64,000 bases of DNA from Gammaproteobacteria bacterium. Lineage in GTDB: Bacteria > Pseudomonadota > Gammaproteobacteria > Ga0077536. Both the position numbers and the translations under genes were made by a program. Numbering within the stretch: position 1 is the first letter of the stretch; every line of letters starts with the position of its first letter. Below the pieces are notes generated by a model. It ran no database searches. It had not been told where the DNA came from and worked only from the letters and a program-made list of their open reading frames with translations. Location: assembly GCA_965216305.1 (NCBI GenBank), contig OZ244144.1, positions 2,036,248-2,100,247 on the forward strand, in the 5' to 3' direction. Positions 32,949 to 55,732 of the stretch are shown here, piece after piece.

Positions 32949-32983
32949 CCGCTGAGCGATCGGATCGTCCAGATACGTTTCTA

Positions 32984-35988: not shown

Positions 35989-36004
35989 AACAGTGGACAC
36001 TTAA

Positions 36005-36826: not shown

Positions 36827-37113
36827 CGCGATCGAAATCGCAAACTTCGCGGATGGCGGCGCAGAAACCGCATTCGGTATTTAGCAGGAAGAAACGGCAG
36901 CTTACTTGAACATTCGACGGAATCCGGAGTGGCTTTGGTGTTGCTCTTGGCTACGAGCCCTGCCTGGTTACGCTCGATTCCACGTAACTTGCGCTTGTTC
37001 CAAGCGAATAACGTCTGTTGAGAAACCAAATGCATTCGCACCGTTGCGCTATCTACCGAAGAACAGTGCATGTGAAGCTATTCCATGACCGAGTGTAATT
37101 TGAGCGTTTATTT

Positions 37114-38244: not shown

Positions 38245-38248
38245 AGAA

Positions 38249-39544: not shown

Positions 39545-39568
39545 GTTTTCTGTTTCAAGATTACACCG

Positions 39569-40816
39569 GTGTTTTCGTTTAAAAAGCTGGTCCCGAATTT
39601 GTCGGTCAGTTACCTCTCAAGCGTGTTGGGTTTCGTAACGATCCTTTTTGTTGCAAGGTGTCTCGGCGCGGAAAATTTCGGTGTGTTTGCTTTTGGAATC
39701 GCTATCGGCGGTTTCCTGATGCCACTGTTGAATCTGGGCAGTGATCGCGCTTTTGTGAAGGATGCGGTTAATGCGCCATCGAAACAAGACGTATTCCGAC
39801 TTGCCAGGGTAAACCGGAATATTCGGACCTTCGCGGCATTGATAATCGCTTCACTCTTGCTACTTGGGTTGTCTGTATACGACCCATACCCGGGGGCGCT
39901 CTTATCCGTATTTTGCGTCGGCCTATGGGCCGCGCTCATGGGGCTCTATCCCGCTGCGTGGTATGACTACTCGGGACAAACGTACAAGCAAAATCTGATA
40001 GTGCTGGGCGAAAGGGTGACAGCGATAGTTGCCGTATTCATGCTGGCAGAACTGTATACTGGTCATCGACTCCAGGCTGCTATTTCTGCCGGACTTTTGT
40101 TTATTCGACTCGGGTTCATCTTAGCGCAGGTAGTACTCTGGCGCCGTATGGAGGGGGATCCCGGTTCCGCAGAAGGTAATATGTTTCCGCGCTTCCATTC
40201 CGAGGGAATCAACCTCCCTGTGACAGTCGCGATATTCTCAAACGCACTGTTAACGTACGGTAATCAATTGTTTCTAAACTCCCGGGGTGAAACTGAGATT
40301 GCTGCGTACGGGTTGGCGTTTCAGTTGCTGAGTCCGATATTTCTTTTTCACGGCCAAGCATTGCGCCTGTTCCAACGACAGATAGCGCATGCCTGCCAAT
40401 CCGGCACTGAGATTCTTGCGTCTGTGTTCAAATCAGCGGCAACCTTGGCCGGCGGCGCCCTGATGCTAGCCGTGCTAATTGCAGTTCTGATGCGCTTTAT
40501 TCCGAGCCTGTTAGCTGATGACAGATTTAGCGCGATGTCCGATTATTCACCAATACTAATGACGTGGTCCGTCTTTCTCGGAGTAGGAATCGTCGTAACG
40601 CAACATCTAATCGCCTTAGGAGAAGAGAAATTCTTCGTAACGGTCGCATTACTCGGAGGACTCGTCGCCATTCTGGCAGGCATGTGGTTTATTCCGCGGC
40701 ATGGCGGTATCGCGGTGGCGCTAATTCTTTTGTGTGTACATTTGGTGATGATTTCGACAAACGGCATTCGCCTCTATGTTGTTGCGTCATCGTCGGCCCG
40801 TTCACGTGTCTCCTAA
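39569..40816 (+). CDS. Wzx-like oligosaccharide flippase (polysaccharide biosynthesis protein, MOP superfamily).
   Basis: 415 aa with about 12 predicted TM helices and a GTG start. Typical polysaccharide-transporter hydropathy profile. Position in the EPS locus next to a Wzy-like gene. Confidence 0.65.
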   Translation: MFSFKKLVPNLSVSYLSSVLGFVTILFVARCLGAENFGVFAFGIAIGGFLMPLLNLGSDRAFVKDAVNAPSKQDVFRLARVNRNIRTFAALIIASLLLLGLSVYDPYPGALLSVFCVGLWAALMGLYPAAWYDYSGQTYKQNLIVLGERVTAIVAVFMLAELYTGHRLQAAISAGLLFIRLGFILAQVVLWRRMEGDPGSAEGNMFPRFHSEGINLPVTVAIFSNALLTYGNQLFLNSRGETEIAAYGLAFQLLSPIFLFHGQALRLFQRQIAHACQSGTEILASVFKSAATLAGGALMLAVLIAVLMRFIPSLLADDRFSAMSDYSPILMTWSVFLGVGIVVTQHLIALGEEKFFVTVALLGGLVAILAGMWFIPRHGGIAVALILLCVHLVMISTNGIRLYVVASSSARSRVS

Positions 40817-40861
40817 CTGCACCCTCGAGGGGCCTTGAGACCGTAATTACCAAGAGCGAAG

Positions 40862-42244
40862 TTGAAGGCGACTGTACAAATGCGCATTGACTATCACCAA
40901 ATCTCAAGGAACTTGAGTCTTATCTGCTGGGCAGGGTGGTCGCTGTATTCAATTTATTTACTATCTGCCGCAAATTCGAGATCCGACTTATTTTTGACCT
41001 ACTTGCTTTATCTGATGTTGAGCGGGTTCATGGTGTGGATTTCTAGGAAGGATCTGCTTTCCCCCATAGGATTGTTTACGCTAGCCGGGTTCATGGCGTT
41101 CGGATCTAACATTCCCTTCATAAATGCCGATAGTTATTTCGGATTTGGCATCAGCGAGAAAACCCTTACTAAAGTACTTGTTCTATTTTTAGTAGCGTAC
41201 AGTGCGTTCATATTGGGTACGGTTAGCCGGGTAAATCGCATTTTTCCATTCAAGCGCTTGATTGGGTCAGATCATGGCAGCTTGTCTGCCTCGATTCCCA
41301 TTTATGGTCTCTTGCTAGGAATGGTTTTGGTGGCGGGCTTCATCAGGGCTAAATATCACCTTGGCGAGGCAGGTATTCAGCCAGCCATCAGGTATGCCGG
41401 TTATTTTCAGTACTTACTCTATGATGGCTTGTTAGTATTTTGCGGGTGGTTTCTGGCCTCATCCATTAGGCGCGGAACGGTTTTTATCCTTCTTGCTTTA
41501 TCGCTTCTTGTTAGCTTGGCGATTGTGCAAGCGTATCTCGGTTGGCGAGGAGGGATCTTCCAAGTATTTATATTGGCAGTAGGTATATTTTGGTATCAAA
41601 GCTCCAACAGCCGGACCGTCTCGAGCGCTTCTATGAATTGGGTGCTGATATTAGTCGTGCTCGCAGGAACAATTACAAACTTGGGTAATCAGGTGAGGTC
41701 TGAGCGCTTGGGCGGGCAGCGTACGTTTGCGGAGAATAGGGTTGAGTTCGCCGAGAAGGTCGTAGTGAGGACGCAAGGAACCTCTCGGTTGGCCGCGGTT
41801 GTGAATCATTTCGGAGATTTGACGTGGGTGAACAATTACAAAATTGTTGAACTCTACAAGTCCGGTACCACGTCAACTGTTTACGTTGATAGAGCTATTC
41901 ATGGCGTCGGTAAGAACCAGTCTCACAGTGTCGGTGCGTCAGGACCTGGAGGGCCCTATGTGGCACTTGGGATGCTTGGGATTTTCGGCGCGTACTACTT
42001 CCTCGGCGTGTTTTATCGGGGTTGTTACGAGACGATATTGGCATCGCGTAATAAGGTGTTCGCCACAGTTCTTTACTCCTATTTAATGTACGTTCTGTTC
42101 CAGCTGTTGTCTGGAAATTTTGGCTTGAATTCTGTTAAAAAAATTGGTGCGGTACTCGCACTCACCGTCGTCCTCAAACTGATTGTGAGTCGGCTCGGGG
42201 TTAGCGACGCACCGCAATCCCTGAGGTTGTTCAGAAAGCCATGA
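40862..42244 (+). CDS. Wzy-like polysaccharide polymerase (O-antigen ligase/polymerase-type membrane protein).
   Basis: 460 aa polytopic membrane protein with a large hydrophilic loop (residues ~270-340) between TM blocks. Low sequence conservation is expected for Wzy. Confidence 0.5.
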   Translation: MKATVQMRIDYHQISRNLSLICWAGWSLYSIYLLSAANSRSDLFLTYLLYLMLSGFMVWISRKDLLSPIGLFTLAGFMAFGSNIPFINADSYFGFGISEKTLTKVLVLFLVAYSAFILGTVSRVNRIFPFKRLIGSDHGSLSASIPIYGLLLGMVLVAGFIRAKYHLGEAGIQPAIRYAGYFQYLLYDGLLVFCGWFLASSIRRGTVFILLALSLLVSLAIVQAYLGWRGGIFQVFILAVGIFWYQSSNSRTVSSASMNWVLILVVLAGTITNLGNQVRSERLGGQRTFAENRVEFAEKVVVRTQGTSRLAAVVNHFGDLTWVNNYKIVELYKSGTTSTVYVDRAIHGVGKNQSHSVGASGPGGPYVALGMLGIFGAYYFLGVFYRGCYETILASRNKVFATVLYSYLMYVLFQLLSGNFGLNSVKKIGAVLALTVVLKLIVSRLGVSDAPQSLRLFRKP

Positions 42245-42298
42245 ACCGGATCACTCAAGCAAATACCAAAGCCGAATTCCCTTCTTTTGGCTAGCACA

Positions 42299-42826
42299 AT
42301 GCGTAAATTGATATTTAGAGCTCGGCGCTTGTGGAAGATTCGCAATAACAGCTACCCGTCGTACGTACCAGCAACATCGTTTGTGCAAACGTCGTCATCG
42401 TTTGTCGAACCGGCAAAACTGTCCTTAGGCGAGCACGTTTACATTGGCGCCGAATGTTTTATTAATTGCAAAGGTGGCGTCGCAATTGGTGACGGTTGCA
42501 TGGTATCGGCGTACGTCGTGATCCTTTCTGAGGATCATGATTTTCGTGAGGTGGTCCGCATGCCCTTCAACCGCGGTATGCGGTTTGATCCTGTAACGAT
42601 CGAAGCTGGTGTCTGGCTTGGGATTCGATCGATGATTCTGCCTGGAACTATTATCGGGCAAGGTGCAATCGTCGCCGCAGGTTCGGTGGTAACAAAGAAC
42701 GTAGAGCAGGGCACCATCGTTGCAGGAAATCCCGCGAGGGTCGTAGGCAAGCGGATCGATGGCTGGCGTTCAGTCCTCGATGCCAAACAGTACTACCTCG
42801 CCGGGCATGCGTTAATTGGCGGATAG
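42299..42826 (+). CDS. Hexapeptide-repeat (left-handed beta-helix) acyl/acetyltransferase, probable polysaccharide O-acetyltransferase.
   Basis: LbH repeats (IGAECFINCKGGVAIGDGCMVSAYVVI...VWLGIRSMILPGTIIGQGAIVAAGSVV). Trimmed to ATG 42299. Similar to the WcaF/maltose-O-acetyltransferase type. Confidence 0.8.
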   Translation: MRKLIFRARRLWKIRNNSYPSYVPATSFVQTSSSFVEPAKLSLGEHVYIGAECFINCKGGVAIGDGCMVSAYVVILSEDHDFREVVRMPFNRGMRFDPVTIEAGVWLGIRSMILPGTIIGQGAIVAAGSVVTKNVEQGTIVAGNPARVVGKRIDGWRSVLDAKQYYLAGHALIGG

Positions 42827-42862
42827 CCGTATAGCCCGCAGATAGACCGGATGAATTGAGAA

Positions 42863-43825
42863 GTGGAGAAAGGACCGATATTTGTCGTTGGGCCGCCTCG
42901 TAGCGGCACGCACCTGATGCGTTATTGCTTGAGTCAGCATCCAAATGTCTATATTGGCCCAGAGTCTAACTTTTTCCAGGCGATCTATGGCAGCCGCACC
43001 GTCGTCCCAGATTCTCTAATTAAATCAAACAGCGGATTGATTCTGGAGATGCTGTTCGCCAGCGGCGACCCAAGCATGTCTGAATTTGAACCGAACAAAG
43101 ATGCGATCGAGAAATCGATCAAGATGCAGGCCAATAATTATCGAGAACTCTCCCGGATAATTTTTAGTAGTTTCGCAATTTACAAGCAGAAGCCACGATG
43201 GGGCGAGAAAACGCCGCTGCATCTATATTATCTGGATAAGCTGTTCGATTACTTCCCGAACGCAAGAGTCATTTGTATGCGGCGTGATCCGAAAAACATA
43301 ATCGCGTCCTACATAAAAAGTAGTCACATGCCTAATAGATTGTCATTCGCTATGGCTGAAGTCAGGCATTGCTGGAAAATTATGCAGCGTATTACTGACA
43401 AAAGATTACAAATCGTCGAGTACGAAGATCTGCTGGCAAACCCGTCCGCTACATTGCGAATGGTTTGTGATTTTTTGGATGAGGAATTTAAGGAGGCCAT
43501 GCTCAACCCAAAAATGCGGGATTCTTCATACAGTGGCGGGATCATGGAGTTCGACGAATCGATAAAAATCGAACAGGAACCCGGTGCAAACGAGAAATGG
43601 AAACGCGTATTGAGCGAAGAAGAGGCTCGCAGCGTCATGACATGGGTGAACGTGGGCGCGATATCGCTGTTTTCTCCCGAAGTTAGTTGGCTGCTAATTG
43701 GGCGCGCGATTATTGCGTCGTGGGTCTATCGTATGCGATTAATGAAGTCAAGAATGGGGCTTTTCCACTGGAAGCGCGTCGTGCAAGTAAGTCGGCGGCG
43801 CGCCGACTATCCGCAAGCGGATTAG
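42863..43825 (+). CDS. Sulfotransferase family protein (PAPS-dependent).
   Basis: 5'-PSB loop VVGPPRSGTHLM and 3'-PB motif RDPKNIIASY. About 320 aa, typical of the Sulfotransfer_3-like family. Hydrophobic C-terminal tail. Confidence 0.75.
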   Translation: MEKGPIFVVGPPRSGTHLMRYCLSQHPNVYIGPESNFFQAIYGSRTVVPDSLIKSNSGLILEMLFASGDPSMSEFEPNKDAIEKSIKMQANNYRELSRIIFSSFAIYKQKPRWGEKTPLHLYYLDKLFDYFPNARVICMRRDPKNIIASYIKSSHMPNRLSFAMAEVRHCWKIMQRITDKRLQIVEYEDLLANPSATLRMVCDFLDEEFKEAMLNPKMRDSSYSGGIMEFDESIKIEQEPGANEKWKRVLSEEEARSVMTWVNVGAISLFSPEVSWLLIGRAIIASWVYRMRLMKSRMGLFHWKRVVQVSRRRADYPQAD

Positions 43826-43858
43826 CAACCCCAGCACGATGAGGTGTAATTAACACAA

Positions 43859-45106
43859 GTGAATATCTTATTCGTTGTGAACGAGGTGCCCTATCCGCCG
43901 GATAACGGTGTAAAGATCGTCTCCTATAACGCCATGCGAATGATGAGCGAAGCTGGGCACAACGTTAGTATTTGTGTTCTGTGCGAAAAGAGCCCTTCAT
44001 CGATTTCGGATTACGAATCGCTGTGTTCGGAGTTTGGAATCGAAAACAGGTGTATCGAATTCACCGACGAAAGTAAGAAACTGAGAAATATCGTGCGTAC
44101 CGCGTTATGCGGCAAGCTATATTTCATTGAGCGGTTCCGATCACTGTCGTTTCGGGTTGCGCTGGAGGTCTTGGTTGCGAAGTTTGAACCCGATGTTATT
44201 CATTTTGATCTGATCACCTTGTGTCAATACTATGATGTAGCCCCGCTCGGCATCGGAACTGTTGCGTCAATAAACGATTGCTATTCGCTCAAACTTGAGA
44301 ACTCGCTGGCTGCCGGGAATTACTCCGGAGTTGAAGTGCCGTATCGAGTTTGGCAACTTCGGCGGTCCAGAAAGTACGAATCGCAGATGTATCCAAATTT
44401 CGACTTCGTTCATGTGATGAGCGAAGTCGACAGCGGGTACCTCGAAAAGCTAAACCCGAAGATCGAAACGAGAGTTATTCCGAATGGTGTCAGTGCCGAG
44501 TTGTTCAATTTGCCACAGGTGAATAGCGCAAATGTCACAGTACTATTCATTGCTCATCTGGCTGGTGATAATTTGGTGTACTTGGCGAACCTTCTAGACA
44601 AATGTTGGCCGGTTGTCGCTCGTGAATTTCCCCAAAGCGTGTTGCGAATCGTAGGCAAGATTCCAGAGTCTTCACGTCCGCTACAAACGAAATACGAAAA
44701 CGTTGAGGGTGTGCGATTCGCTGGCTACGCCGAGAATCTTGTGGACGCCTACGAAGGATGTGATATCGCAGTTGTTCCCATTAATAAGAGCGGCGGCATT
44801 CTGAATAAGGCTATTGAGGCCATGGCGGCAGGCCTTGCGGTCGTTGGCTTCGACAAATCCTTCGCCGGAATCGCCGGTGCGCGTAGTGGACAACATTACC
44901 TAACCGCTAAAGATTATGAGGGAATAGGAGAGGTCTTGATTGCACTGATTCGAGACCAGAATCGTCGGGACGAGATACGAGCGCAGGCGCGTAAATTTGC
45001 TCGCGATAATTTTTCCTGGAACCAGCGTGTTGAGGCTTACGAGTCGATGTATTGGCAAGCTGCACGACTGTCGATCGAGAAGCGCAGCGGACATGGATCA
45101 ACGTAG
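43859..45106 (+). CDS. Glycosyltransferase family 4 (GT-B, Glycos_transf_1).
   Basis: C-terminal GT4 signature (…EGCDIAVVPINKSGGILNKAIEAMAAGLAVVG…). GTG start. Confidence 0.8.
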   Translation: MNILFVVNEVPYPPDNGVKIVSYNAMRMMSEAGHNVSICVLCEKSPSSISDYESLCSEFGIENRCIEFTDESKKLRNIVRTALCGKLYFIERFRSLSFRVALEVLVAKFEPDVIHFDLITLCQYYDVAPLGIGTVASINDCYSLKLENSLAAGNYSGVEVPYRVWQLRRSRKYESQMYPNFDFVHVMSEVDSGYLEKLNPKIETRVIPNGVSAELFNLPQVNSANVTVLFIAHLAGDNLVYLANLLDKCWPVVAREFPQSVLRIVGKIPESSRPLQTKYENVEGVRFAGYAENLVDAYEGCDIAVVPINKSGGILNKAIEAMAAGLAVVGFDKSFAGIAGARSGQHYLTAKDYEGIGEVLIALIRDQNRRDEIRAQARKFARDNFSWNQRVEAYESMYWQAARLSIEKRSGHGST

Positions 45107-45896
45107 TCAATTTCGAATTCACCTTGAAGCCGCTAAGCGGTTATTCATGGTCAATGCCCTTTCTGGTGTACTACCGCTTTACATCGTTACGGAATATCCG
45201 AAATCTGGCGGAACCTGGATATCTCAGGTTCTTTCGGAATGTTTGGGTATCCCCTTTCCTCGAAACAGGCCACCAAAACTTGAATCCTGCCTAATGCACG
45301 GCCACATGACTTTTTCGCCACTTATGAAAAACGTTGTCGTTGTACAACGCGACGGCAGAGACGTGATGATATCGTGGTATTACCATATGTTGTTTCAGCA
45401 TGATCGAAATACGCAACATCTCGTAGAAAAGACGAGGCAACGCCTAGCATTCCCTGATTTTGAGGATATTGAGGAGAACTTACCGAAGTTTATTGAGTAT
45501 GTTTTCGAGTCGGAGCAGCGATCTCGAAGTCCATTTCATTTCACGTGGAGCCAGTTCGTTGACAGCTGGCACGACAAAGATGTCCCGAAAGTAAGTTATG
45601 AGGAAATGATTGAGGGGCCTGTCCGTGCTGTACAGAACGTGATAGGGCGACTGGGGGTAGATGAAGTTGACGCCGAAACCGTAGCGACGATAGTTGATAA
45701 GTATAGCTTTCAGGCGCAATCACAGCGTGCGCCAGGTCAGGAGGATAAATCTAGTTTTCTCCGGCGTGGAAAGCCCGGTGATTGGAAGAACAAGTTTAAC
45801 CGACGTGCGGCAGAAGTTTTCGATCAACTGGCAGGAACTCAATTGGTCCAACTTGGGTACGAGCCAGATACAAGTTGGGTTAGGAAGCTCCTGTGA
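45093..45896 (+). CDS. Sulfotransferase (Sulfotransfer_1-like, PAPS-dependent).
   Basis: Trimmed to ATG 45093, which overlaps the GT4 end by 14 nt. 5'-PSB motif EYPKSGGTWISQVL. C-terminal RRGKPGDWKNKF matches the canonical RKGxxGDWKNxF sulfotransferase motif. Confidence 0.8.
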   Translation: MDQRSQFRIHLEAAKRLFMVNALSGVLPLYIVTEYPKSGGTWISQVLSECLGIPFPRNRPPKLESCLMHGHMTFSPLMKNVVVVQRDGRDVMISWYYHMLFQHDRNTQHLVEKTRQRLAFPDFEDIEENLPKFIEYVFESEQRSRSPFHFTWSQFVDSWHDKDVPKVSYEEMIEGPVRAVQNVIGRLGVDEVDAETVATIVDKYSFQAQSQRAPGQEDKSSFLRRGKPGDWKNKFNRRAAEVFDQLAGTQLVQLGYEPDTSWVRKLL

Positions 45897-47059
45897 CGTC
45901 TGACGCGAACGGGTACGATTTCTTGCTTAATGGCGCGTCGATAGTCGTCGGTGGCGGCATTCAATCGTGCTCTGCATTCGTTAGATATTTGATCGCCCGC
46001 GGGATTAGTGAACGCTGCTTCTTCGTCGTTTCGGATGAAATACATCAGGAACTATTGAAGTTTGGTGTGGATATTGCCTCGATGGGCGGGGTAGTTACGA
46101 TTGATGCGCCCTCGAAGCATCTCGCGACGAGACGTTTGCTCGCGGACGTAGAGCGAAAGTGTAAACCTGCGGTGGTGTTCACGTTCTTCGGTCCGTCTTA
46201 TGTCAAGTTTCGAGCTAAGCATATATGCGGTGTGGCTGACGGGTGGGTGACGCACTCCACTCCTTTGGCGTTTAAAACACTCCGAGGTTGGTCAGCGAAA
46301 TTGCGTATGCTTGCCGCGCTAATCTACAAAGCATTCCATTTTCGAAGAGCGGACTACTGGATAGTAGAGCACGACTGTGCGAAGCAAGGCCTTATCCGTC
46401 GGCTGAGGCTGGCGCCTGGTAAAATATCGGTCGTGCCAAATAATTGTGCACCCCATTACGTCGCCTCGACTGAACGGACTGTGCTCTTGGAGGAAACAGC
46501 CAAGTGCCGAATTCTGGTATTCGGGGCTTACTATCCGAATAAGCGGTTAGAAATCATTCCCCTGGTTGCAAAGGCCTTAAGATCGCTCGATCAAGAATTC
46601 TCGTTTGAATTCATCATCACTGTTAAACCTGGTCTGCCTATTTGCGATGAACTTGCTACGAGCTTGAAAAGGATCGGACTGAATCACAGCTTCAAAAATA
46701 TCGGACCGATTCCATTACGAGACGGGCCGGCGCTATACAGGTCGTGCGACGTCGTGTTTCACCCTTCGGTATTGGAAACGTTTTCGGCGGTATACCCGGA
46801 AGCAATGGCGATGGCTGTACCGATCGTTACCAGTGATCTAGATTTCGCTCGATCGATTTGCGGAGAAGGGGCACTTTATTTCAATCCAAACGATCCTGGC
46901 GATGCGGCAAAGAAGATTCACGAAGTTCACACAAATGTGAATGCTCGAAAGCGACTAATCGAGCGAGCGAGAAAGCGCCAATCTGATATGCCTACCATTG
47001 ATCAGAACCACAAGTCACTCGTAGACATCATTAGCGGTATCGTGGACCGTCACTCCTAA
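45893..47059 (+). CDS. Glycosyltransferase family 4.
   Basis: 388 aa. GT4 E-x7-E region (ETFSAVYPEAMAMAVPIVTSD). Overlaps neighbours by 4 and 1 nt, suggesting translational coupling. Confidence 0.75.
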   Translation: MTSDANGYDFLLNGASIVVGGGIQSCSAFVRYLIARGISERCFFVVSDEIHQELLKFGVDIASMGGVVTIDAPSKHLATRRLLADVERKCKPAVVFTFFGPSYVKFRAKHICGVADGWVTHSTPLAFKTLRGWSAKLRMLAALIYKAFHFRRADYWIVEHDCAKQGLIRRLRLAPGKISVVPNNCAPHYVASTERTVLLEETAKCRILVFGAYYPNKRLEIIPLVAKALRSLDQEFSFEFIITVKPGLPICDELATSLKRIGLNHSFKNIGPIPLRDGPALYRSCDVVFHPSVLETFSAVYPEAMAMAVPIVTSDLDFARSICGEGALYFNPNDPGDAAKKIHEVHTNVNARKRLIERARKRQSDMPTIDQNHKSLVDIISGIVDRHS

Positions 47060-48621
47060 TGAATACGCAAGATCTGCCAAACGTTCCCTTACCGGGCATT
47101 GATTATTACCGTGGCCAAGGTGATTTACGGATTAAGGTTGCCGTTTTTCTCAATGTATCGCGAATTGAAGGTCTATATTTCGAACGCGAGAAAAGTCTTA
47201 GGCTACTCTGGAACTATTGGCGCGAAATTGGCTTTAAGGCAGTTCTGACGAAGATCCGTTCGAGACACGCGGAGCGAGCGCGGAATGTCAAGTTTCTTTC
47301 GGTGGGAGTCGGCTACGTCGAGGAAGCGGATAGTGGCAGTCAGTTCGCGCGTGAACTGGTGATGTTCGTAGCACCTCAGCACCCGCGGTTATTGGATTCG
47401 ATTGTATTGTGCGAGGCGTTGGTGCATCGCATTACAAACGATCACGATCTCCCAGAAAAAGCCGGTGTGCTGATTCACGACGAGATTGATTCGAGTGTGT
47501 CGTCTGCGCTGGAACCTTTGTGTGGTTGGGACAAAATTTCCCAAACGCCGATTCCAGCCATCGATTGGTCGTTGATTTCGCGAATGTTACATGACCACAA
47601 TTATTCGGCCGCAAAAAGATATCGGAATAACGCTCGGGATTACCACGATATCTTACCCGCCAGCTTCCAACGGAAGACTTCGGGGAATGTAAAATACGCG
47701 ACTCTGTTCGGGTACGGAAATTACGCGAAGTCCGTTATTCTCGCAAACCTGCCTGACAGCTTAGTAGTGACACGCATACACGAACTGGATCCGATTCAGA
47801 TACCTCACCGGGAACGGCATGTAACATGGGATACGAGTCCAGGCCCGCGCACTAATGACGCTAATCGCGTATTTTTTACTGCCGGTTACCATCACACGCA
47901 CACGGATCAGGCGGTTATCTGCTTACGCTCGGGAGGCGACGCAGTAATCGAGAAACCGCTTGTGGTCAATGAACAGCAACTCTCCGACCTACTAGATGGC
48001 TTGCAGGCGTCCCGGGGACGCGCATTTGCGTGCTTCCAAAAGCGTTACAGTATATTTAACCAGCACGCGCGAGAGGATTTGGAGGTAGCCGAGGGCGAGC
48101 CGGTTTCGTACCACTGTATTGTTTACGAAGTTCCATTGCCGCCGTTGCACTGGTATCGGTGGCCCTCTTCGAGATCCAGACTCATATCCAATGGCTGCCA
48201 TTGGATTGATCACGCGCTGTATCTAAATGGATTCCCCGCGTTCGAAACCATTAGTGTTTTTCAGAGTTCTTCCTCAGAGATAAATGTGTCTGTTGAGTTT
48301 TCTAATGGAGCGTTCTTTACGATGATTCTTACAGACAAAGGGAGTTCGCGGATTGGTATGCAGGACTATGTTGAATTAAGGGCGAACGGAAAGACAGTCA
48401 AAATTGCGAATAGCACTAGCTATCAGAGCGAAAGCTCTGATCGAATTATCAGGAAATGTCGTGCTAATAAAATGAAAAGTTACGCAAATATGTATCGAAC
48501 GATTGGCCAAAGAATTTTAGGCGATGGCCCAGGAGACTCGCTTGAATCCGTCGTTAGTAGTTGCAAACTGACCGTTGAGTTGGATAAAAAAGCCGGCGGG
48601 ACTCAAGGGGTGCCCTCGTGA
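47059..48621 (+). CDS. Two-domain protein: uncharacterized N-terminal domain (~200 aa) fused to a Gfo/Idh/MocA-family NAD(P)-dependent oxidoreductase.
   Basis: C-terminal half has Rossmann GxGxxA (LFGYGNYAKS), the EKP motif (AVIEKPL) and a GCHWIDHALYL-type C-terminal-domain motif of the Gfo/Idh/MocA family. N-terminal 200 aa has no motif I recognise. Confidence 0.65.
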   Translation: MNTQDLPNVPLPGIDYYRGQGDLRIKVAVFLNVSRIEGLYFEREKSLRLLWNYWREIGFKAVLTKIRSRHAERARNVKFLSVGVGYVEEADSGSQFARELVMFVAPQHPRLLDSIVLCEALVHRITNDHDLPEKAGVLIHDEIDSSVSSALEPLCGWDKISQTPIPAIDWSLISRMLHDHNYSAAKRYRNNARDYHDILPASFQRKTSGNVKYATLFGYGNYAKSVILANLPDSLVVTRIHELDPIQIPHRERHVTWDTSPGPRTNDANRVFFTAGYHHTHTDQAVICLRSGGDAVIEKPLVVNEQQLSDLLDGLQASRGRAFACFQKRYSIFNQHAREDLEVAEGEPVSYHCIVYEVPLPPLHWYRWPSSRSRLISNGCHWIDHALYLNGFPAFETISVFQSSSSEINVSVEFSNGAFFTMILTDKGSSRIGMQDYVELRANGKTVKIANSTSYQSESSDRIIRKCRANKMKSYANMYRTIGQRILGDGPGDSLESVVSSCKLTVELDKKAGGTQGVPS

Positions 48622-48624
48622 AAA

Positions 48625-48866
48625 AACTCTTAACGGTCTACGCACTGGGACCACGATCGTTGAGTATTTACCGCCGCTAATGCCGTTGCTCGGGCAATTA
48701 TAAAGTCGCATGAGCGTTACGGTTATCTCTGCGGGGTCGAAGCGAATGTTAATGGGTTTTGGGAAAGGCAACCGTATCGCAAAAGCACGGCAACAACCCG
48801 ACAAGGGGAGGCAGGTGATAACAAAGCTGCGCACCGACGGTATTGTTCCCGCGGTCGATCTGGTTC
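48625..48866 (+). pseudogene. Decayed duplicate of the first ~80 codons of the downstream bi-domain oxidoreductase gene (gene remnant / recombination scar).
   Basis: Translating 48625-48866 gives K T L N G L R T G T T I V E Y L P P L M P L L G Q L * S R M S V T V I S A G S K R M L M G F G K G N R I A K A R Q Q P D K G R Q V I T K L R T D G I V P A V D L V R F G *. This aligns colinearly with MKQVLQDLSSGQTIVEDVPEPMPAPGALLIRTSRTLISAGTEKMLIDFGKGNLISKAMQQPDKVKQVLDKVRTDGLGPTLQTVRSKLG of the gene starting at 48959. The remnant has internal stop codons. Confidence 0.75.
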
Positions 48867-48958
48867 GGTTCGGCTAAGGTGCCCTTGCACGTAAACCGAT
48901 TGCTCGGACTGGCGGGTCCGATTTTCGCTATTCTAATTGAACCGTAAGATTTTCATAA

Positions 48959-51100
48959 ATGAAACAAGTACTTCAGGATTTGTCGTCAGGACAAACTATC
49001 GTTGAGGACGTCCCGGAACCAATGCCCGCGCCGGGCGCGTTACTGATCAGAACTTCCAGGACCTTAATTTCCGCGGGGACCGAGAAGATGCTTATAGATT
49101 TCGGGAAAGGGAACCTGATTTCGAAGGCGATGCAGCAACCCGATAAAGTGAAACAGGTTCTGGATAAGGTTAGAACGGATGGGCTCGGGCCCACGCTCCA
49201 AACCGTGCGTAGCAAGCTTGGTCAGCCGTTACCAACTGGCTACTGCAATGTCGGAGTTGCCGAATCCATTGGTGCTGGCGTGGCGGGTTTCGATGTAGGC
49301 GACCGAATTGCTTCAAATGGAAAGCACGCCGGTGTGGTCTCGGTTCCCCAAAACCTGTGCGCCAGGATCCCCGATTCAGTTCCCGATGACGAAGCGGCAT
49401 TTACAGTGGTGGGAGCCATAAGTCTCCAGGGCGTCCGCCTCGTTGCGCCTGCTTTAGGCGAATGTGTCGTCGTGATTGGCCTGGGGTTGATAGGTCTCAT
49501 CACCGTCCAACTCCTGCGGGCACATGGATGTCGGGTTCTCGGCATCGACTACGATTCGCGGAAGGTCGACATGGCCAAGGAGTTCGGTGCAACGGCAATC
49601 AATCTCGCGAGCGGTGATGACCCCATTGCTGCCGCAATGACCTTCTCGCGAAAGCGGGGTGTTGACGCAGTAATTATTACCGCTTCAACAAAGAGTAACG
49701 AACCGGTGCATCAGGCCGCGACGATGTGCCGGAAAAGGGGACGCATCGTTCTCGTCGGTGTGGTTGGTCTCGAACTATCGCGCGCCGACTTTTTCGAGAA
49801 GGAACTCACGTTCCAGGTCTCCTGCTCGTATGGCCCGGGTCGGTACGATCCGCGCTATGAGGAGGGCGGGCAGGATTACCCGGTGGGCTATGTCCGGTGG
49901 ACGGAACAGCGAAATTTCGAAGCGTTTCTGGACATGATTGCGGAGCGTCGTTTGGACATGCGGCCGCTAATTTCCCATCATTTCGATATTGAACGCGCAA
50001 CTGAAGCATACGACCTAATCAGCGGCGATTCGCCGTCGCTCGGCGTGCTCCTCCGCTATCCGAAGTCGGACGAAAACCCGCGACACGCAAATACAGTTGA
50101 ACTCGCAACCCGAGATCCGAAAGAACGGCCGGGCAATGCTACAGTTGGGTTCATCGGTGCAGGAAACTACGCGTCGCAAGTTCTGATTCCCGCGTTCGCG
50201 AAAACCGAGGCGCAGCTGCGTGCGGTTGTATCTGCGTCCGGAGTGAGCGCGGTACACATAGGCAAAACTTTCGCTATCTCACAAGCCTCGACCGACACGG
50301 ACGGGGTAATAAGCGACGAAGAGACGAACACCGTCGTAATAACAACACGGCATGATTCGCATGCGCGGCTGGTCTGCGCAGCATTGTCTGCAGCTAAAAG
50401 CGTGTTCGTCGAGAAACCGCTCGCTCTGAATAATGCGCAATTGGATCAGATCGCAGAGGCCTACGAGAGCGTCTCCGCTGACAAGGGCGTAAGACCGAAT
50501 TTGATGGTTGGGTTCAATCGACGTTTCTCCCCGCAAATTGTTGAGCTAAAACGTCTGCTGGATTCCACGAGCCAACCAAAGAGTTTTATTGTTACGGTAA
50601 ATGCTGGTGAAATTCCTCCTGAACATTGGACTCAGGACAAACACATCGGCGGCGGTAGAATTATCGGCGAGGCATGCCACTTCATTGACTTACTTCGTCA
50701 CCTCGCGGGCGTGCCGATTGCCGAGGTTCAGGCAGTCCGCATGGGTTCGAAACCCGGCGTGTCTACCCCGGATGACAAAGCAACGTTCACCCTGGCATTC
50801 GAAGACGGATCTTTTGGAACCGTGCATTATTTTGCTAACGGCAGCAAATCGTTTCCGAAAGAACGCATCGAGGTGTTCTCTGGTGGCGGTATTATCCAAC
50901 TCGACAATTTCCGCAAGATGAAAGGCTATGGCTGGCCTGGTTTCAAATCGATGAACCTCAGGCGTCAGGACAAGGGCAACGGTGCGTGCGTACAGGCGTT
51001 TGTGGACAGTGTCACCACCGGCGCCGAGTCTCCGATCCCATATAACGAATTAATGGAAGTCCATCGACGCACATTCCAAATCGCAGATCTGCTCGGCTGA
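48959..51100 (+). CDS. Bi-domain oxidoreductase: N-terminal Zn-dependent alcohol dehydrogenase (MDR) domain fused to a C-terminal Gfo/Idh/MocA oxidoreductase domain.
   Basis: 713 aa. Residues ~1-340 have MDR features (GroES-like fold, Rossmann VVIGLGLIGL). Residues ~380-713 have Gfo/Idh/MocA motifs (VGFIGAGNYAS, VFVEKPLA, GGRIIGEACHFIDLLRHL). Confidence 0.8.
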   Translation: MKQVLQDLSSGQTIVEDVPEPMPAPGALLIRTSRTLISAGTEKMLIDFGKGNLISKAMQQPDKVKQVLDKVRTDGLGPTLQTVRSKLGQPLPTGYCNVGVAESIGAGVAGFDVGDRIASNGKHAGVVSVPQNLCARIPDSVPDDEAAFTVVGAISLQGVRLVAPALGECVVVIGLGLIGLITVQLLRAHGCRVLGIDYDSRKVDMAKEFGATAINLASGDDPIAAAMTFSRKRGVDAVIITASTKSNEPVHQAATMCRKRGRIVLVGVVGLELSRADFFEKELTFQVSCSYGPGRYDPRYEEGGQDYPVGYVRWTEQRNFEAFLDMIAERRLDMRPLISHHFDIERATEAYDLISGDSPSLGVLLRYPKSDENPRHANTVELATRDPKERPGNATVGFIGAGNYASQVLIPAFAKTEAQLRAVVSASGVSAVHIGKTFAISQASTDTDGVISDEETNTVVITTRHDSHARLVCAALSAAKSVFVEKPLALNNAQLDQIAEAYESVSADKGVRPNLMVGFNRRFSPQIVELKRLLDSTSQPKSFIVTVNAGEIPPEHWTQDKHIGGGRIIGEACHFIDLLRHLAGVPIAEVQAVRMGSKPGVSTPDDKATFTLAFEDGSFGTVHYFANGSKSFPKERIEVFSGGGIIQLDNFRKMKGYGWPGFKSMNLRRQDKGNGACVQAFVDSVTTGAESPIPYNELMEVHRRTFQIADLLG

Positions 51101-52770
51101 TGAGTTTCAACAAGCTGTGCCGTTACTGGCGCACGGTTAAGTATTTAAAGGCAAGCCAGATACTCTTCTACGGCATTCGGCGGGGGCTGAAATTTCCCCG
51201 CCGATTATCGCCGCCGCGTTCTCCCTCTATAAGGCGCGGTTTTGCGTTGCAACCGCCGTTGCCCGCAAAGACCACATACAGTCCGAAGGCTTGTTTCGTG
51301 TTCCTTCGCCGGGAACTCGATTTCGGCGAATTCATCGACTGGAACTGCTCTGAAATGCCCGCGCTGTGGCGATATAACCTGCATTATTTCGACTACCTGC
51401 GCCAGGAGCAGATGCCGCTCGAGCAAGGTCTTGCGTTAATTAATGACTGGATTCTGCGTCACAGCCACATTGACGGCATCGGCTGGCACCCCTACCCGAC
51501 GTCATTGCGACTCGTTAACTGGATTTACTTTCTTTCCTCAGAACCGGGCGATTCGGTGCTTGAGCGGCAAATCGTGGACAGCATCGCAACGCAGGCCGAG
51601 TGGCTACACAAGAACGTTGAGTACCACATTCTCGCCAATCACTTGTTCGAAAACGCGAAGGGGCTGCTATTCGCCGGTGCATTTCTGGGCGGTGCTATTG
51701 GAAATAAACACATCAAAAGAGGGCTCGGGATCTTACGGACCGAGCTCGACGAGCAATTCCTTGACGACGGGGGGCATTATGAGCGTACCCCGATGTATCA
51801 CGCCATACTGACTCAAGATCTACTCGATTTGAGTAATCTGTTTTCAAGTAACCCGGGAATATTCACACAGGGCGACCTCGATGCCGTGAATGGCCGCGCC
51901 CGCCTGGCGCTCGATTTTCTCGATGCGCTGGATCCGCCGGACAGTTCAACGCTCTTCTTTAATGATTCGACGAATGCGATCGCGCCGGAGCCGCCGCAAC
52001 TGATGCAATTCGCCCGTCGGCTCATGGATTATCCTGATCCGGGCAGGCCGCGAGACCTGGGTGTTATGCCGTTTGCTAGCTCGGGTTACTACATCGTACG
52101 GGAACCCGGCAATCTTCTGGTGTTCGATTGCGGCGAAATTGGCCCGGATTACCAGCCGGGTCATGCTCACTGTGACACACTGAGCTATGAGTACTTTTTA
52201 AATGGCCGTAAAGTCATCACGAATTGTGGAAACTTTGATTACGAAACGAGCGATGAGCGACAGTTCGCGCGCAGCACGGCAGCACACAACACAGTTGTCG
52301 TCGATGGGGAAGAGCAATCAGAGGTTTGGGGCGCATTCAGGGTCGCACGGCGAGCGCGGCCAGTTTATGCGACGTTAACCCGCATTGACCCCGCTCATGC
52401 CAGGTTCAGCGGTGCGCACAACGGCTATCAACGCTTGCGTCCGGGGGCGATTCACGAGCGCACGATGGACTACTTCCGCGGCGGTGCATTCAGGGTTGAA
52501 GATACAATAGCGGCAGAAAGTACACATAGCGTCGAGAGCTACGTACATTTCGTAGCTGGTATGCGAATTGTGCCGACAGAAGAGGGGTTCCTGATCTTCG
52601 ATGAGTATGAAGAACTCGTTTTGAAACTCACTCCATTTGGTGCCGACGCCGTGGAAGTTGTTGCTTCAATACGATTTCCCGAATTCGGTGTGAAGGAAGA
52701 CGCAATGTCGATCAGGATCCGAAAATCCGGCGCCGCTCCTTTCAGCTTCGGATATGAAGTAACGCCATAA
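51100..52770 (+). CDS. Heparinase II/III-like family protein, cytoplasmic (no signal peptide); candidate polymer/sugar-modifying lyase or uronyl epimerase.
   Basis: 556 aa. Central region with the conserved W/H/Y-rich alpha-toroid (WHPYPTSLRLVNWIY..., HILANHLFENAKGL, GGHYERTPMYH) and a C-terminal beta-sandwich (GHAHCDTLSYEYF...AAHNTVVVDG) typical of the Hepar_II_III family. ATGA overlap with the upstream gene. Confidence 0.7.
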   Translation: MSFNKLCRYWRTVKYLKASQILFYGIRRGLKFPRRLSPPRSPSIRRGFALQPPLPAKTTYSPKACFVFLRRELDFGEFIDWNCSEMPALWRYNLHYFDYLRQEQMPLEQGLALINDWILRHSHIDGIGWHPYPTSLRLVNWIYFLSSEPGDSVLERQIVDSIATQAEWLHKNVEYHILANHLFENAKGLLFAGAFLGGAIGNKHIKRGLGILRTELDEQFLDDGGHYERTPMYHAILTQDLLDLSNLFSSNPGIFTQGDLDAVNGRARLALDFLDALDPPDSSTLFFNDSTNAIAPEPPQLMQFARRLMDYPDPGRPRDLGVMPFASSGYYIVREPGNLLVFDCGEIGPDYQPGHAHCDTLSYEYFLNGRKVITNCGNFDYETSDERQFARSTAAHNTVVVDGEEQSEVWGAFRVARRARPVYATLTRIDPAHARFSGAHNGYQRLRPGAIHERTMDYFRGGAFRVEDTIAAESTHSVESYVHFVAGMRIVPTEEGFLIFDEYEELVLKLTPFGADAVEVVASIRFPEFGVKEDAMSIRIRKSGAAPFSFGYEVTP

Positions 52771-52904
52771 AGAGTGCGAACTACGTTCTAATACCCTTAT
52801 TTTTCATGCATTTGACATAGAAACTAAACTATACTCGGCCGCTCGAAATTTCATCGGCCGCATCATTTGAGTGCGGGTACGTAACGGCAATTGGCGCGGC
52901 ATTC

Positions 52905-54161
52905 ATGCGGATCCTGTTTCTCTCCCACTATTTTCCTCCGGAAGTTAACGCCCCGGCATCGCGGACGTTTGAGCACTGCCGCGAATGGGTTCGCCTCGGC
53001 CATGAGGTTACCGTCGTAACTTGCGCGCCGAATCATCCGCGAGGCCAGGTCTACGACGGCTACCGTAATCGCTTGTTTCAACGTGAAGAAATCGAAGGCA
53101 TAAACGTAATCAGGGTTTGGACCTATCTTTCCGCGAACGAGGGTTTTATCAAGCGCACCATGAATTACGTCTCGTTCATGCTGGCCTGCATTTTCACGGT
53201 GCCGGGCATGCCGAAGTGCGATATCGTGATCTCGACGTCTCCGCAGTTCTTTAATGGATTAGCCGGTTTTTTCGTCAGTCGTCTGAAATCGGCGCCCTGG
53301 CTACTCGAAATCAGAGACCTTTGGCCGGAGTCCATTCTGGCAGTAGGCGCCATAACAAATACCACCTTGATTCGCAGCCTGCGCTGGCTCGAATCGTTCG
53401 CTTACCGAAAGTGCAACCACATAGTGCCGGTAACGGATGCTTTCAGGCGACATATGCTCGACATGGGAATTGCCGCGGACAAGATTACAGTAATCAAGAA
53501 TGGCGCTTCCCTGGATTTCTACGACGACACTAACTCGGACGGTGGTTTGCGAACTCAGTTGGGGTTACAGGACAAGTTCATTGCGGCGTATTTTGGTACC
53601 CACGGAATGGCGCACCATCTCGAAACAGTCCTGGAAGCTGCAGCAGAACTCCAAGACAATGAACACGTCGTATTCTTGCTCGTTGGTGATGGTGCGGAAC
53701 GAGTCAGGCTCGAACAGCAACTGGCATCCATGAAGCTAGATAACGTAATGATGCTTGGTCAACAGCCGAAAGAAAAAATGCCAGCATTGTGGGCGATGAG
53801 CGACGCAAGTTTAGTGCTGCTGCGACGGACCGACCTGTTCAAAACGGTCATTCCATCGAAAATATTCGAAGCGATGGCGATGGCAAAGCCGATTATCCTT
53901 GGTGTCGAAGGTGAGTCGAAAGAAATCGTTGAAACTGCCGGAGCAGGGATTGCGATACCCCCCGAAGACGCCAAGGCGCTTGCGTCGGCTGTCTCGACAC
54001 TCGCCGAAGACGCCGGCGCCTGTGAGTCTTATGGCCGCAATGGCAAGTCCTATGTGCACGAATATTTTGACCGTAAGGTGCTTGCGAAACGATACGAGGG
54101 CTTACTTGCGGAAGTGGCGAAATCGCGTAACGCACAAGGAATGAAGAGGAAAGCAAATTGA
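52905..54161 (+). CDS. Glycosyltransferase family 4 (WbuB/WcaI-like).
   Basis: 418 aa. N-terminal MRILFLSHYFPPEVNAPASR is typical of WbuB-like GT4. C-terminal E-x7-E (EAMAMAKPIILGVEGESKE). Confidence 0.85.
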   Translation: MRILFLSHYFPPEVNAPASRTFEHCREWVRLGHEVTVVTCAPNHPRGQVYDGYRNRLFQREEIEGINVIRVWTYLSANEGFIKRTMNYVSFMLACIFTVPGMPKCDIVISTSPQFFNGLAGFFVSRLKSAPWLLEIRDLWPESILAVGAITNTTLIRSLRWLESFAYRKCNHIVPVTDAFRRHMLDMGIAADKITVIKNGASLDFYDDTNSDGGLRTQLGLQDKFIAAYFGTHGMAHHLETVLEAAAELQDNEHVVFLLVGDGAERVRLEQQLASMKLDNVMMLGQQPKEKMPALWAMSDASLVLLRRTDLFKTVIPSKIFEAMAMAKPIILGVEGESKEIVETAGAGIAIPPEDAKALASAVSTLAEDAGACESYGRNGKSYVHEYFDRKVLAKRYEGLLAEVAKSRNAQGMKRKAN

Positions 54162-55732
54162 ACACAGCCGCCACGCAGTATTGGAAGAATTCGACGCTCG
54201 GCTGGCTTTTAGTCATTGTCGCTGCGTCGGCCGGTGCGTATATCTTCTACGAAAGCGTCGAATTAATGGTGAGTTGGTGGTCGAATCGCGAAGAATACAG
54301 CCACGGTTTCCTTATTCCGCTGATCACCGTCTACCTTATTTGGCAGCGCAGCGACCAATTGCGCAAGATTGAGTTCTCGGGGTCGTGGCTCGGTGTTCTG
54401 GTCGTCTTATTTGGCCTGTTTCTGTATTTTCTGGGTGAACTCAGCACAATCTACACGGTTGTGCAGTACGGTTTTGTGCTGGTGATTTACGGTGTTGTCT
54501 GGGCATACATCGGCACGAAGGCTTTCAAGGTAGTAGCCATCCCCCTGCTGCTGCTCTTCTTCATGATCCCGTTCCCCAACTTCATCTACAACAACCTCTC
54601 CTCCCAGCTCCAACTGCTTTCTTCCGAAATCGGCGTTGCCGTAATCCGCCTGTTCGGCATCAGCGTATTCCTCGAAGGCAATGTCATCGATCTCGGAACG
54701 TACAAGCTCCAGGTCGTCGAAGCGTGCAACGGCTTGCGCTATCTGTTTCCGCTGATGACGCTTGGCCTGATCGTGGCCTATCTCTATCACGCAGCGTTAT
54801 GGAAGCGCGCGATTATTTTCTTCTCGACAATTCCTATCACGATCCTGATGAACAGTTTCCGGATCGGCGTGATCGGTGTGATGGTGGAGTACTGGGGGCA
54901 GTCGATGGCGGAGGGGTTCCTCCACGACTTCGAGGGCTGGGTAATCTTTATGGCGTGTTTCGGGATCTTGTTCCTGGAAATGTGGCTATTGATGCGCATT
55001 ACGAAGGATAAACGGCCGCTCAACGAGGTGTTCGGTATCGATCCGCCCGAGCCTGTTGATGAGAACGCCCAATGGCGTACCCGCCCGTTGCCGGTGACGA
55101 TGATAGTAGCCACCGTGCTGATCGTGGGCGCCCTGGTGCCGGCTACGGCGATTCCTAACCGGGTTGAATCCGTTCCCGAGCGCGAATCATTCGCGACGTT
55201 CCCGTTGTCGTTCGATGGTTGGACGGGACGGTCGGAAACGCTGGAACAAATCTACCTCGACGCGCTCAAGCTCACGGACTACGCGCTCATTAACTATACG
55301 AACGACACGGACAACGTCGTGAATTTCTATGCAGCGTACTACGCGTCGCAGCGTAAGGGTCAGTCCGCTCATTCGCCGCGCTCGTGCATACCGGGTGGCG
55401 GCTGGCGCATCGAGTCGCTCACACAGGTTTCGGTGCCGGAAGGCGCACCGGGGGGCGGGGATTTGCCGGTGAACCGGGTACTGATTACGAACGGCAATCA
55501 CAAACAACTCGTCTACTACTGGTTTCAGCAGCGGGGTCGGATCATCACGAATGAATACCTCGTGAAGTGGTTCGTGTTCTGGGATGCGATGACGAAGAAC
55601 CGCACGGATGGATCCTTGATCCGGTTGACGATACCGATTGCTCCGGGCAAGGACGTCGATGAACTTGAGAAGTTGTTGCGCAAGTTCGCCCGCGATGCCC
55701 GCGACATCCTGCCGGCCTACGTGCCTGGGTAG
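54158..55732 (+). CDS. xrtA: Exosortase A (XrtA) fused to a C-terminal EpsI-family domain.
   Basis: N-terminal ~300 aa with 8 TM helices and exosortase active-site Cys motif (VVEACNGLRYLFP) plus conserved Arg/Asn positions. C-terminal ~200 aa periplasmic domain resembling EpsI. TTG start with AAGAGGAAAG RBS, overlapping the upstream stop. Confidence 0.8.
   Translation: MNTAATQYWKNSTLGWLLVIVAASAGAYIFYESVELMVSWWSNREEYSHGFLIPLITVYLIWQRSDQLRKIEFSGSWLGVLVVLFGLFLYFLGELSTIYTVVQYGFVLVIYGVVWAYIGTKAFKVVAIPLLLLFFMIPFPNFIYNNLSSQLQLLSSEIGVAVIRLFGISVFLEGNVIDLGTYKLQVVEACNGLRYLFPLMTLGLIVAYLYHAALWKRAIIFFSTIPITILMNSFRIGVIGVMVEYWGQSMAEGFLHDFEGWVIFMACFGILFLEMWLLMRITKDKRPLNEVFGIDPPEPVDENAQWRTRPLPVTMIVATVLIVGALVPATAIPNRVESVPERESFATFPLSFDGWTGRSETLEQIYLDALKLTDYALINYTNDTDNVVNFYAAYYASQRKGQSAHSPRSCIPGGGWRIESLTQVSVPEGAPGGGDLPVNRVLITNGNHKQLVYYWFQQRGRIITNEYLVKWFVFWDAMTKNRTDGSLIRLTIPIAPGKDVDELEKLLRKFARDARDILPAYVPG

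Follow-up and report, generated by a model that had tools for sequence, protein, structure and literature searches.

A truncated oxidoreductase gene at the junction of a variable polysaccharide cassette in an XrtD exosortase-associated locus

Why should a bacterial gene be preceded, on the same strand and at a distance of only 90 nucleotides (nt), by a broken stretch that resembles its own first codons? The question is raised by a 64,000-nt stretch of DNA from an uncultured gammaproteobacterium (GenBank assembly GCA_965216305.1, contig OZ244144.1, positions 2,036,248 to 2,100,247 of the forward strand; hereafter the window, with positions counted from its first letter). Here a chromosomal exopolysaccharide locus associated with the XrtD (VPLPA-CTERM) exosortase carries an intact gene for a bi-domain oxidoreductase of 713 amino acids (aa), which we call the resident gene, separated by 337 bp of apparently intergenic DNA from an upstream gene for a 520-aa protein. 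A preliminary description of this DNA had noted within the 337 bp, over about 240 bp, what it took for a degenerate duplicate of the resident gene's 5′ end. We found that the 337 bp consist of a pseudogene fragment, called the remnant below, followed by the resident gene's own 90-nt spacer. The remnant is the stump of a different oxidoreductase gene and the footprint of a cassette exchange in the polysaccharide locus, as shown by its homology, truncation and lesions, its position at a recombination junction, the variable centre of the locus and its relationship with the 520-aa gene.

We performed tblastn with the 713-aa protein against window positions 48560-48960 and obtained a single ungapped match, in which residues 2-84 correspond to 48620-48868 (53% identity and 71% positives over 83 aa, E=4e-25). 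The colinearity with the start of the oxidoreductase that had been noticed earlier was thus borne out, and the two segments are also significantly similar as nucleotide sequences (blastn, 68% over 92 nt, E=3e-6); aligned codon by codon, they share 57% nt identity over 252 nt. The homology does not extend over the whole interval from 48622 to 48958 but is confined to 251 nt (48618-48868) colinear with residues 1-84. Past codon 84 of about 713 there is no oxidoreductase homology, and the final 90 nt are resident spacer. Matches between the remnant and the N-termini of 104 other members of the oxidoreductase family are gapless (40-52% identity), and of the 47 family columns conserved in at least 90% of members the remnant keeps 31 and has lost 16.

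Where several in-frame stop codons had been described, the matching frame contains a single one, a TAA, together with a probable −1 frameshift, and it has no in-register start codon. The remnant begins at the stop codon of the 520-aa gene (TGA, 48619-48621). A GTG that overlaps this TGA is probably the original start codon of the remnant gene, and the run of six A residues that follows (48621-48626) has probably lost one nucleotide: with one A added, the remnant translates as MKKTLNGL..., which aligns from residue 1 to the family N-terminus MKQVLQDL.... Colinear homology to the family, the missing remainder of the gene and the lesions identify the remnant as a truncated pseudogene fragment. 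Two open reading frames (ORFs) on the minus strand at 48517-48834 and 48973-49215, whose similarity had also been remarked on, do exist and are 56% identical over 57 aa; their similarity is a trivial by-product of the homology on the sense strand.

The same structure is present in an independent Logan assembly made from another read set (SRR23272282, here L001), which covers window positions 42693-54438 at 99.19% identity over 11,746 bp, with 95 mismatches and 0 gaps. As L001 contains the same remnant, including the TAA at 48701 and the A6 run, the structure is real and no assembly artefact. We scanned 86 loci for similar partial copies of the oxidoreductase gene and found none in the 84 loci that belong to other lineages; the remaining two are the window and L001 themselves. 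The remnant is therefore a one-off scar and no recurrent feature.

Although the remnant stands beside the resident gene, it does not derive from it. The two differ at 109 of 252 nt, and these differences are distributed over codon positions 1, 2 and 3 as 33, 23 and 53 (chi-square p=0.0016), leaving 53.6% aa identity over 84 aa. We simulated neutral decay by mutating the resident 5′ end to 109 differences in 252 nt in 5000 runs. The simulated sequences retained a mean aa identity of 29% (maximum 43%) and acquired a mean of 2.9 stop codons, compared with one observed, and 0 of the 5000 runs reached either the observed aa identity or the observed third-position excess. From this excess and the simulation it follows that the remnant and the resident gene diverged as working genes under purifying selection and that the remnant is a fragment of a distant homologue, which rules out decay of a duplicate of the neighbouring gene. 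Among 121 family N-termini the resident gene leads by a narrow margin only (87.0 bits, with 84.3 bits for the next), and at 53.6% identity, compared with 40-52% for the 104 others, the remnant stands no nearer to it than to unrelated members of the family. When the 55 stop-free residues of the remnant were compared with 1.84 billion representative proteins, the best identity was 62-64%, the L001 copy aside, which points to a source lineage that is both unsampled and distant. Base composition cannot assign the origin, as the overall GC content and the GC content at third codon positions do not separate the remnant (0.52 and 0.57) from the resident 5′ end (0.52 and 0.61).

The gene immediately upstream indicates where the remnant came from. 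The 520-aa protein has no Pfam or NCBIfam match at threshold, but its residues 216-451 can be aligned (22% identity, E=5e-12) to the part of the 713-aa protein that is of Gfo/Idh/MocA type. Its family is a populous one, of proteins of about 528 aa, and the best non-self matches there are 47% identical. We inspected five distinct loci with 520-like genes (L002, Nitrosomonas-like; L003/L004; L069; L171; and L172), and in all five a full bi-domain oxidoreductase gene comes 36-102 nt after the 520-like gene, with a heparinase II/III gene next in line. The remnant sits exactly where 520-like genes carry their oxidoreductase and therefore belonged with the 520-aa gene: it is the stump of the oxidoreductase that came with this gene as its native downstream partner. 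The divergence of the two also agrees: identity to the homologues is 43-47% for the 520-aa protein, and identity to the partner genes of these homologues is 43-46% over 84 aa for the remnant.

We also used a scan of genome contigs with the 713-aa protein (loci L007-L086; best match 66%, with neither the window's own genome nor its close relatives returned) for neighbourhood statistics; the best named relatives in it tentatively indicate Gammaproteobacteria, for example Thiohalobacterales. A heparinase II/III-like match lies downstream of the oxidoreductase in 69 of these 80 genome-contig loci, and a match to the window's family 4 glycosyltransferase (GT4) was found in 66 of the 80. The oxidoreductase-heparinase-GT4 module of the window (48959-54161) is a typical copy; the second, partial oxidoreductase sets the lineage of the window apart from the other loci among the 86 scanned. 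An upstream 520-like gene is present in a minority of oxidoreductase loci only, namely the five listed above. In this subset of polysaccharide loci, the family of about 528 aa, with its degenerate Gfo/Idh/MocA core, is the module's fixed upstream partner.

To locate the junction, we compared the window with its closest relative by the resident oxidoreductase (P0122, 82% aa identity), which lies on a 410-kilobase (kb) Joint Genome Institute (JGI) contig. Two overlapping look-ups on this contig, L005 and L167, together give a 40-kb locus; its left side was reached through the ATPase orthologue, which led to L167, as a scan of metagenome contigs with ManC returned only matches of at most 67% identity and was unhelpful. 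The coding homology of the remnant ends in ...VDLVR, with CGG at 48866-48868 as its last codon. From the next nucleotide on, two exact blocks that lie on a single diagonal are common to the window and L005, TTCGGCTAA (48869-48877) and AACCGATTGC (48894-48903), an arrangement reached in 0 of 5000 shuffles, and from 48924 to beyond 61 kb blastn homology to L005 runs without a break. When the distal spacer was aligned globally to L005, a shuffle test gave no significance (p=0.37), and elsewhere in the window the conserved spacer motifs recur no more often than by chance. With remnant homology ending at 48868 and the blocks shared with L005 restarting at 48869, the join is placed at 48868/48869, 90 bp upstream of the resident ATG.

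The two breakpoints are not equivalent: one falls at codon 84 of the cassette oxidoreductase and the other at position −90 of the resident oxidoreductase. An in-register crossover would leave a hybrid gene and no stump, so the crossover inside the 5′ end of the oxidoreductase gene that was first envisaged does not agree with these positions, and we infer that the join was illegitimate and non-homologous. Homologous exchange between genes of 57% nt identity is not expected. At the junction the window reads GGTTCGG / TTCGGCTAA, and L005 has GGGGAC TTCGGCTAA at the same place.

Comparison with relatives shows that the remnant borders a variable block (Table 1). L167/L005 retains the left chromosomal flank and the ATPase gene on one side and everything from the oxidoreductase onward on the other, with synteny kept beyond 61 kb, and the centre is divergent (28-62% aa identity) or without orthologues; most genes of the flanks, by comparison, reach 78-91%. 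Nucleotide homology to L167 and to L170, which with L169 is one of two further relatives sharing the left flank, ends at window positions 32300-32305. The ATPase itself matches those of the relatives at 78-81% aa identity as far as about residue 270; its 3′ end is variable and marks the start of the cassette. L169 and L167 are 97.4% identical over 10.8 kb up to the ATPase 3′ end (L169 1-10820 against L167 7-10820); past it, their export genes fall to 64-73% identity or have no similarity. This is a sharp cassette breakpoint equivalent to window position ~32300, for the left border only. In L170 (10001-18014), the ATPase gene is followed by an IS21-type insertion sequence (IS) element with an IstB-like gene and a 429-aa ORF, two minus-strand genes, one of them for a glycosyltransferase, and then XrtD; L170 lacks all export genes, the cassette and the oxidoreductase-heparinase-GT4 module.

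The conserved flanks, the non-orthologous or divergent centre and the sharp drop in identity at the left border demonstrate cassette exchange in this polysaccharide locus. With the centres of L167/L005, L169 and L170 all variable, the locus is plastic between the ATPase gene and the oxidoreductase/XrtD block, in a zone running from the ATPase 3′ end to just upstream of the bi-domain oxidoreductase. The preliminary description had anticipated a recombination footprint between a variable upstream module and a conserved block from the oxidoreductase onward, and all of these relatives support it; the variable block, expected to begin at 31.5 kb, has its left limit at about 32.3 kb and its right limit at 48,868. 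The step in GC content is likewise present, with values of 0.48-0.50 at 32-49 kb, 0.52-0.57 at 49-55 kb and 0.58-0.66 in the flanks. It is no peculiarity of this lineage, as the variable blocks of L169 and L167/L005 are low in GC too (0.46-0.52 in the centre of L167/L005); low GC therefore marks the variable region in both lineages. We found no sign that a mobile element or a site-specific insertion (IS, integrase or tRNA-linked island) was the cause. Transposase and integrase Pfam domains were absent from 20 proteins encoded at 29.8-57.4 kb, with one 179-aa ORF checked against NCBIfam only, and the cassette boundaries have repeats at chance level only and no tRNA.

Table 1. Features of the locus and aa identity to the closest relative
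Feature	Position in window	Strand	Basis	Aa identity to L167/L005 (%)
Left chromosomal flank				68, 84, 91, 59, 80
XrtA/PEP-CTERM-type system ATPase gene, putative left homology arm	31492-32385	+	TIGR03015-like	78
Variable polysaccharide cassette, ~16.6 kb, GC ~0.49	32300-48868	+	homology breaks against L167 and L170	
Wza-like, beta-barrel, Wzz-like, kinase-like, epimerase				58, 28, 48, 56, 62
Part of window without orthologues (10.6 kb)	38.2-48.9 kb			no orthologues
520-aa divergent Gfo/Idh/MocA-like gene, last intact cassette gene	47059-48621	+	alignment to 713-aa protein	
Remnant: first ~84 codons of the cassette's own bi-domain oxidoreductase, truncated and inactivated	48618-48868	+	tblastn	
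GTG (48618-48620) overlapping TGA of 520-aa gene (48619-48621), then A6 run (48621-48626)	48618-48626	+	sequence	
In-frame TAA nonsense codon in remnant, aligned to family Leu29	48701-48703	+	sequence and tblastn; also in L001	
55-aa ORF in remnant (76 aa in L001)	48710-48877	+	ORF list	
Recombination junction, within a few nt	48868-48869	.	end of coding homology and restart of L005 homology	
Resident 90-nt spacer upstream of oxidoreductase operon	48869-48958	+	alignment to L005 9908-10000	
Resident intact 713-aa bi-domain oxidoreductase (MDR/ADH-like N-terminal half, Gfo/Idh/MocA C-terminal half)	48959-51100	+	Pfam, NCBIfam	
Oxidoreductase onward				82, 61, 80, 85, 85, 91, 81, 84

Taken together, these results are probably best explained by a cassette that was joined illegitimately upstream of the resident oxidoreductase gene and left a dead stump there. 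According to this reconstruction, the lost oxidoreductase would have served as native downstream partner of the 520-aa gene within a cassette of about 32.3-48.87 kb, in a locus whose flanks stayed conserved among related bacteria and whose centre was exchanged between lineages. The left end may have been anchored by homology at the conserved ATPase gene, as in homology-facilitated illegitimate recombination. On the right, the two oxidoreductase genes would have been too different for a homologous crossover, and by an illegitimate join codon 84 of the cassette gene would have come to lie next to position −90 of the resident gene, which would thus have stayed intact together with its spacer. Both ends would go back to a single event. 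The stump would then have decayed by one nonsense codon, the probable 1-nt deletion and about 15 extra aa changes.

Several points weigh against this account. The exchange is reconstructed rather than observed: neither a donor nor a pre-event locus was found, homologues of the 520-aa protein reach at most 47% identity, and the junction is already present in L001, the sole other carrier. The join shows no microhomology that can be clearly assigned, and a local GGTTCGGTTCGG there could be due to chance. The remnant is also more divergent from the partner genes than expected, its 43-46% identity comparing with 60-73% between the partner N-termini of loci whose 520-like proteins are 45-50% identical, a calibration based on only 10 locus pairs. 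The excess amounts to 15-25 percentage points over these 10 pairs, with 2 single-nucleotide polymorphisms (SNPs) between the two strains here, and probably represents about 15 further aa changes since inactivation. The right junction can be compared in two lineages only, the window and L005, and the left boundary and the right junction may come from separate events. Finally, import of the right segment, from the spacer and the oxidoreductase onward, into a genome that already bore the cassette fits equally well.

In this last scenario the polarity is reversed. The cassette, with the 520-aa gene followed by its own oxidoreductase (A) and heparinase (A), would be resident, and the spacer of a related strain would have arrived with oxidoreductase (B), possibly with heparinase (B) onward, by means of a homology anchor on the right (GT4/XrtD) and an illegitimate join inside oxidoreductase (A). 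The distribution of SNPs between the window and L001 agrees with such an import, as their density is 0.45% left of the junction (28/6176 nt) and 1.2% right of it (67/5570 nt; binomial p=7e-6), with clusters at 48959-49650 (2.75%) and 51901-52450 (2.9%) in windows chosen post hoc. This suggests that the cassette and the right block had different recent recombination histories. The heparinase II/III-like gene (51100-52770) lies in the densest of these clusters and is only 61% identical to its L005 orthologue, where adjacent genes are 80-85% identical; it is either fast-evolving or was separately exchanged. The GC content at 49-55 kb, intermediate between cassette and flank, points the same way. 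Against the import, the oxidoreductase, GT4 and the genes from XrtD onward match L005 at the level of the flanks (80-91%), as vertical descent predicts, and the left edge of the divergent block coincides with the demonstrated ATPase breakpoint, which is simplest if 32.3-48.87 kb moved as a unit. We therefore regard reversed polarity as a possible but unlikely course of events.

The sequence around the junction could itself have been of use. In one such reading, the conserved 90-nt spacer and the initial ~700 nt of the oxidoreductase gene, at the 5′ edge of its operon, form a preferred right-hand docking zone for cassettes in XrtD exopolysaccharide loci, and the remnant or its ORF of 55-76 aa was retained for expression of the downstream operon or as a small protein. 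The SNP cluster right of the junction (2.75%, against 0.45% on the left) and the exactly preserved spacer are compatible with both parts of this reading, which we nevertheless consider improbable as a whole. That the exact preservation of the spacer reflects selection on recombinants is speculation.

Quite improbable, too, is a function for the region without any docking zone, as a small protein or as a co-opted leader or regulatory element of the oxidoreductase operon. An ATG-initiated ORF is present in the remnant and was called by the gene caller in L001, but the two strains differ within it by a non-synonymous change (Gly to Ser at 48755) and in its stop codon: the TAA at 48875-48877, which lies in the resident spacer, is a TAC in L001 (window 48877, L001 6185). 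Its only homologues among the 1.84 billion representatives are the N-termini of full oxidoreductases, and the 55-aa ORF is most likely no gene. Within the 90-nt spacer lie the blocks conserved in L005, possible regulatory elements of the oxidoreductase operon, together with a weak hairpin that resembles a terminator (48904-48921, TCGGAC-TGGCGG-GTCCGA, then TTTTCGC) and is not conserved in L005. These conserved blocks sit in the resident spacer, outside the remnant. We found no sigma-70-like promoter in the spacer and no Rfam match above or near threshold in the remnant and spacer, and the fold z-score of the region (−1.5) is unexceptional. The remnant thus appears to be without function today. 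In a representative protein library, the 76-aa ORF of L001 is listed as P0245, a spurious database protein derived from the remnant.

If the resident 5′ end had been duplicated locally in tandem and its upstream copy had then decayed neutrally, this would place two copies 90 nt apart on the same strand and would make the resident gene the top match of the remnant, which nominally it is. We rejected this candidate as hardly credible. The pattern across codon positions is of the kind left by selection and 0 of the 5000 neutral runs reached the observed identity, the remnant begins at the stop codon of a 520-like gene, the native position of an oxidoreductase, and none of the 84 loci from other lineages has such a partial copy. 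That two strains or loci were misjoined at a partial similarity during assembly has next to no probability: although the data are environmental and of the metagenome-assembled type, in which contigs do break within such cassettes (that of L169 stops inside its own), L001 crosses the junction in different reads and extends 6.2 kb and 5.6 kb to its two sides, its 95 SNPs show that it is no re-deposit, and an assembler would not be misled by the mere 57% nt identity that the remnant has with the gene.

Remnants of genes are known from the junctions of O-antigen and capsule clusters, such as the wzy and H-repeat remnants of Salmonella groups B1, D1 and D2 (Reeves et al. 2013, PMC3715488), and those in Escherichia coli O-antigen loci are covered by a review (PMC7685785). 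The locus described here resembles them in its conserved flanks, its low-GC variable centre and a dead, truncated gene that borders blocks of different ancestry. It differs in being an XrtD exosortase exopolysaccharide locus with no IS or H-repeat at the junction, and in that the gene directly after the remnant is its homologue, since the same oxidoreductase-heparinase-GT4 module was present in both parental loci. Homology-facilitated illegitimate recombination is known from published work (de Vries and Wackernagel 2002; Prudhomme et al. 2002; Meier and Wackernagel 2003, as cited in PMC5361080) and is also documented elsewhere (PMC3240628). The likeness lies in one end at a conserved ATPase gene, a possible anchor, and another end at a non-equivalent join of divergent sequences; the difference is that the process in the window would be read from the product. 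Orphaned or displaced gene fragments also lie beside inserted modules in type VI secretion system (T6SS) effector-immunity and Rhs arrays (Kirchberger et al. 2017, PMC5361080). In both cases a module is inserted by a conserved region and a piece of a homologue is left beside the functional copy. The leftovers in T6SS and Rhs arrays are often kept as useful (immunity genes) and pile up serially, whereas the window has only one stump, which carries disabling mutations and shows no sign of selection.

The remnant is thus a well-resolved new instance of a well-known type of scar, found in an XrtD-exosortase locus; it will not surprise specialists and leaves the current understanding of how polysaccharide loci diversify unchanged. 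What it provides is a breakpoint at nearly base-pair resolution (48868/48869) for the exchange of a 16.6-kb surface-polysaccharide cassette in an uncultured bacterium, an exchange that ended in a non-homologous join, probably because the oxidoreductase genes shared by both loci were too diverged. For annotation, the 337-bp region is best entered as a pseudogene fragment and a 90-nt spacer, the small ORFs on both of its strands should not be called genes, and the oxidoreductase should start at the ATG at 48959. The public protein of the resident gene, P0121, has 692 aa and begins at Met22, and the Logan gene call has 713 aa; as the 21 residues before Met22 are conserved across the family, the deposited start looks 63 nt too far downstream (window 48959-49021).

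We further characterized the remainder of the locus, which adjoins the housekeeping genes ahcY, cysS, ileS, the Bat operon, apbE and manC. The XrtD-EpsI exosortase is encoded at 54158-55732 (TIGR04152, 599 bits against a cut-off of 400). In the conserved right block, the oxidoreductase is followed by the heparinase II/III-like gene, a WcaI-like GT4, XrtD-EpsI, a WecA-like transferase and epimerases. The cassette opens with export genes identified with Pfam and NCBIfam (Wza-like, beta-barrel, Wzz-like and kinase-like) and also encodes a UDP-GlcNAc 2-epimerase, a beta-helix protein, a flippase, a 460-aa protein of unknown function, an acetyltransferase, two sulfotransferases and two glycosyltransferases, in addition to the 520-aa gene and the remnant. 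Some gene boundaries within it deserve caution. The ORFs at 44997-45896 and 38150-39544 overlap the preceding genes by about 100 nt, and one sulfotransferase has 267 aa in the L001 gene call and 299 aa as an ORF, its true start probably lying further downstream. The putative outer-membrane beta-barrel protein (32984-34201) is only 26-28% identical to its positional counterparts in L167 and L169, where its neighbours are 48-68% identical, and is a hypervariable, probably surface-exposed component of the export set.

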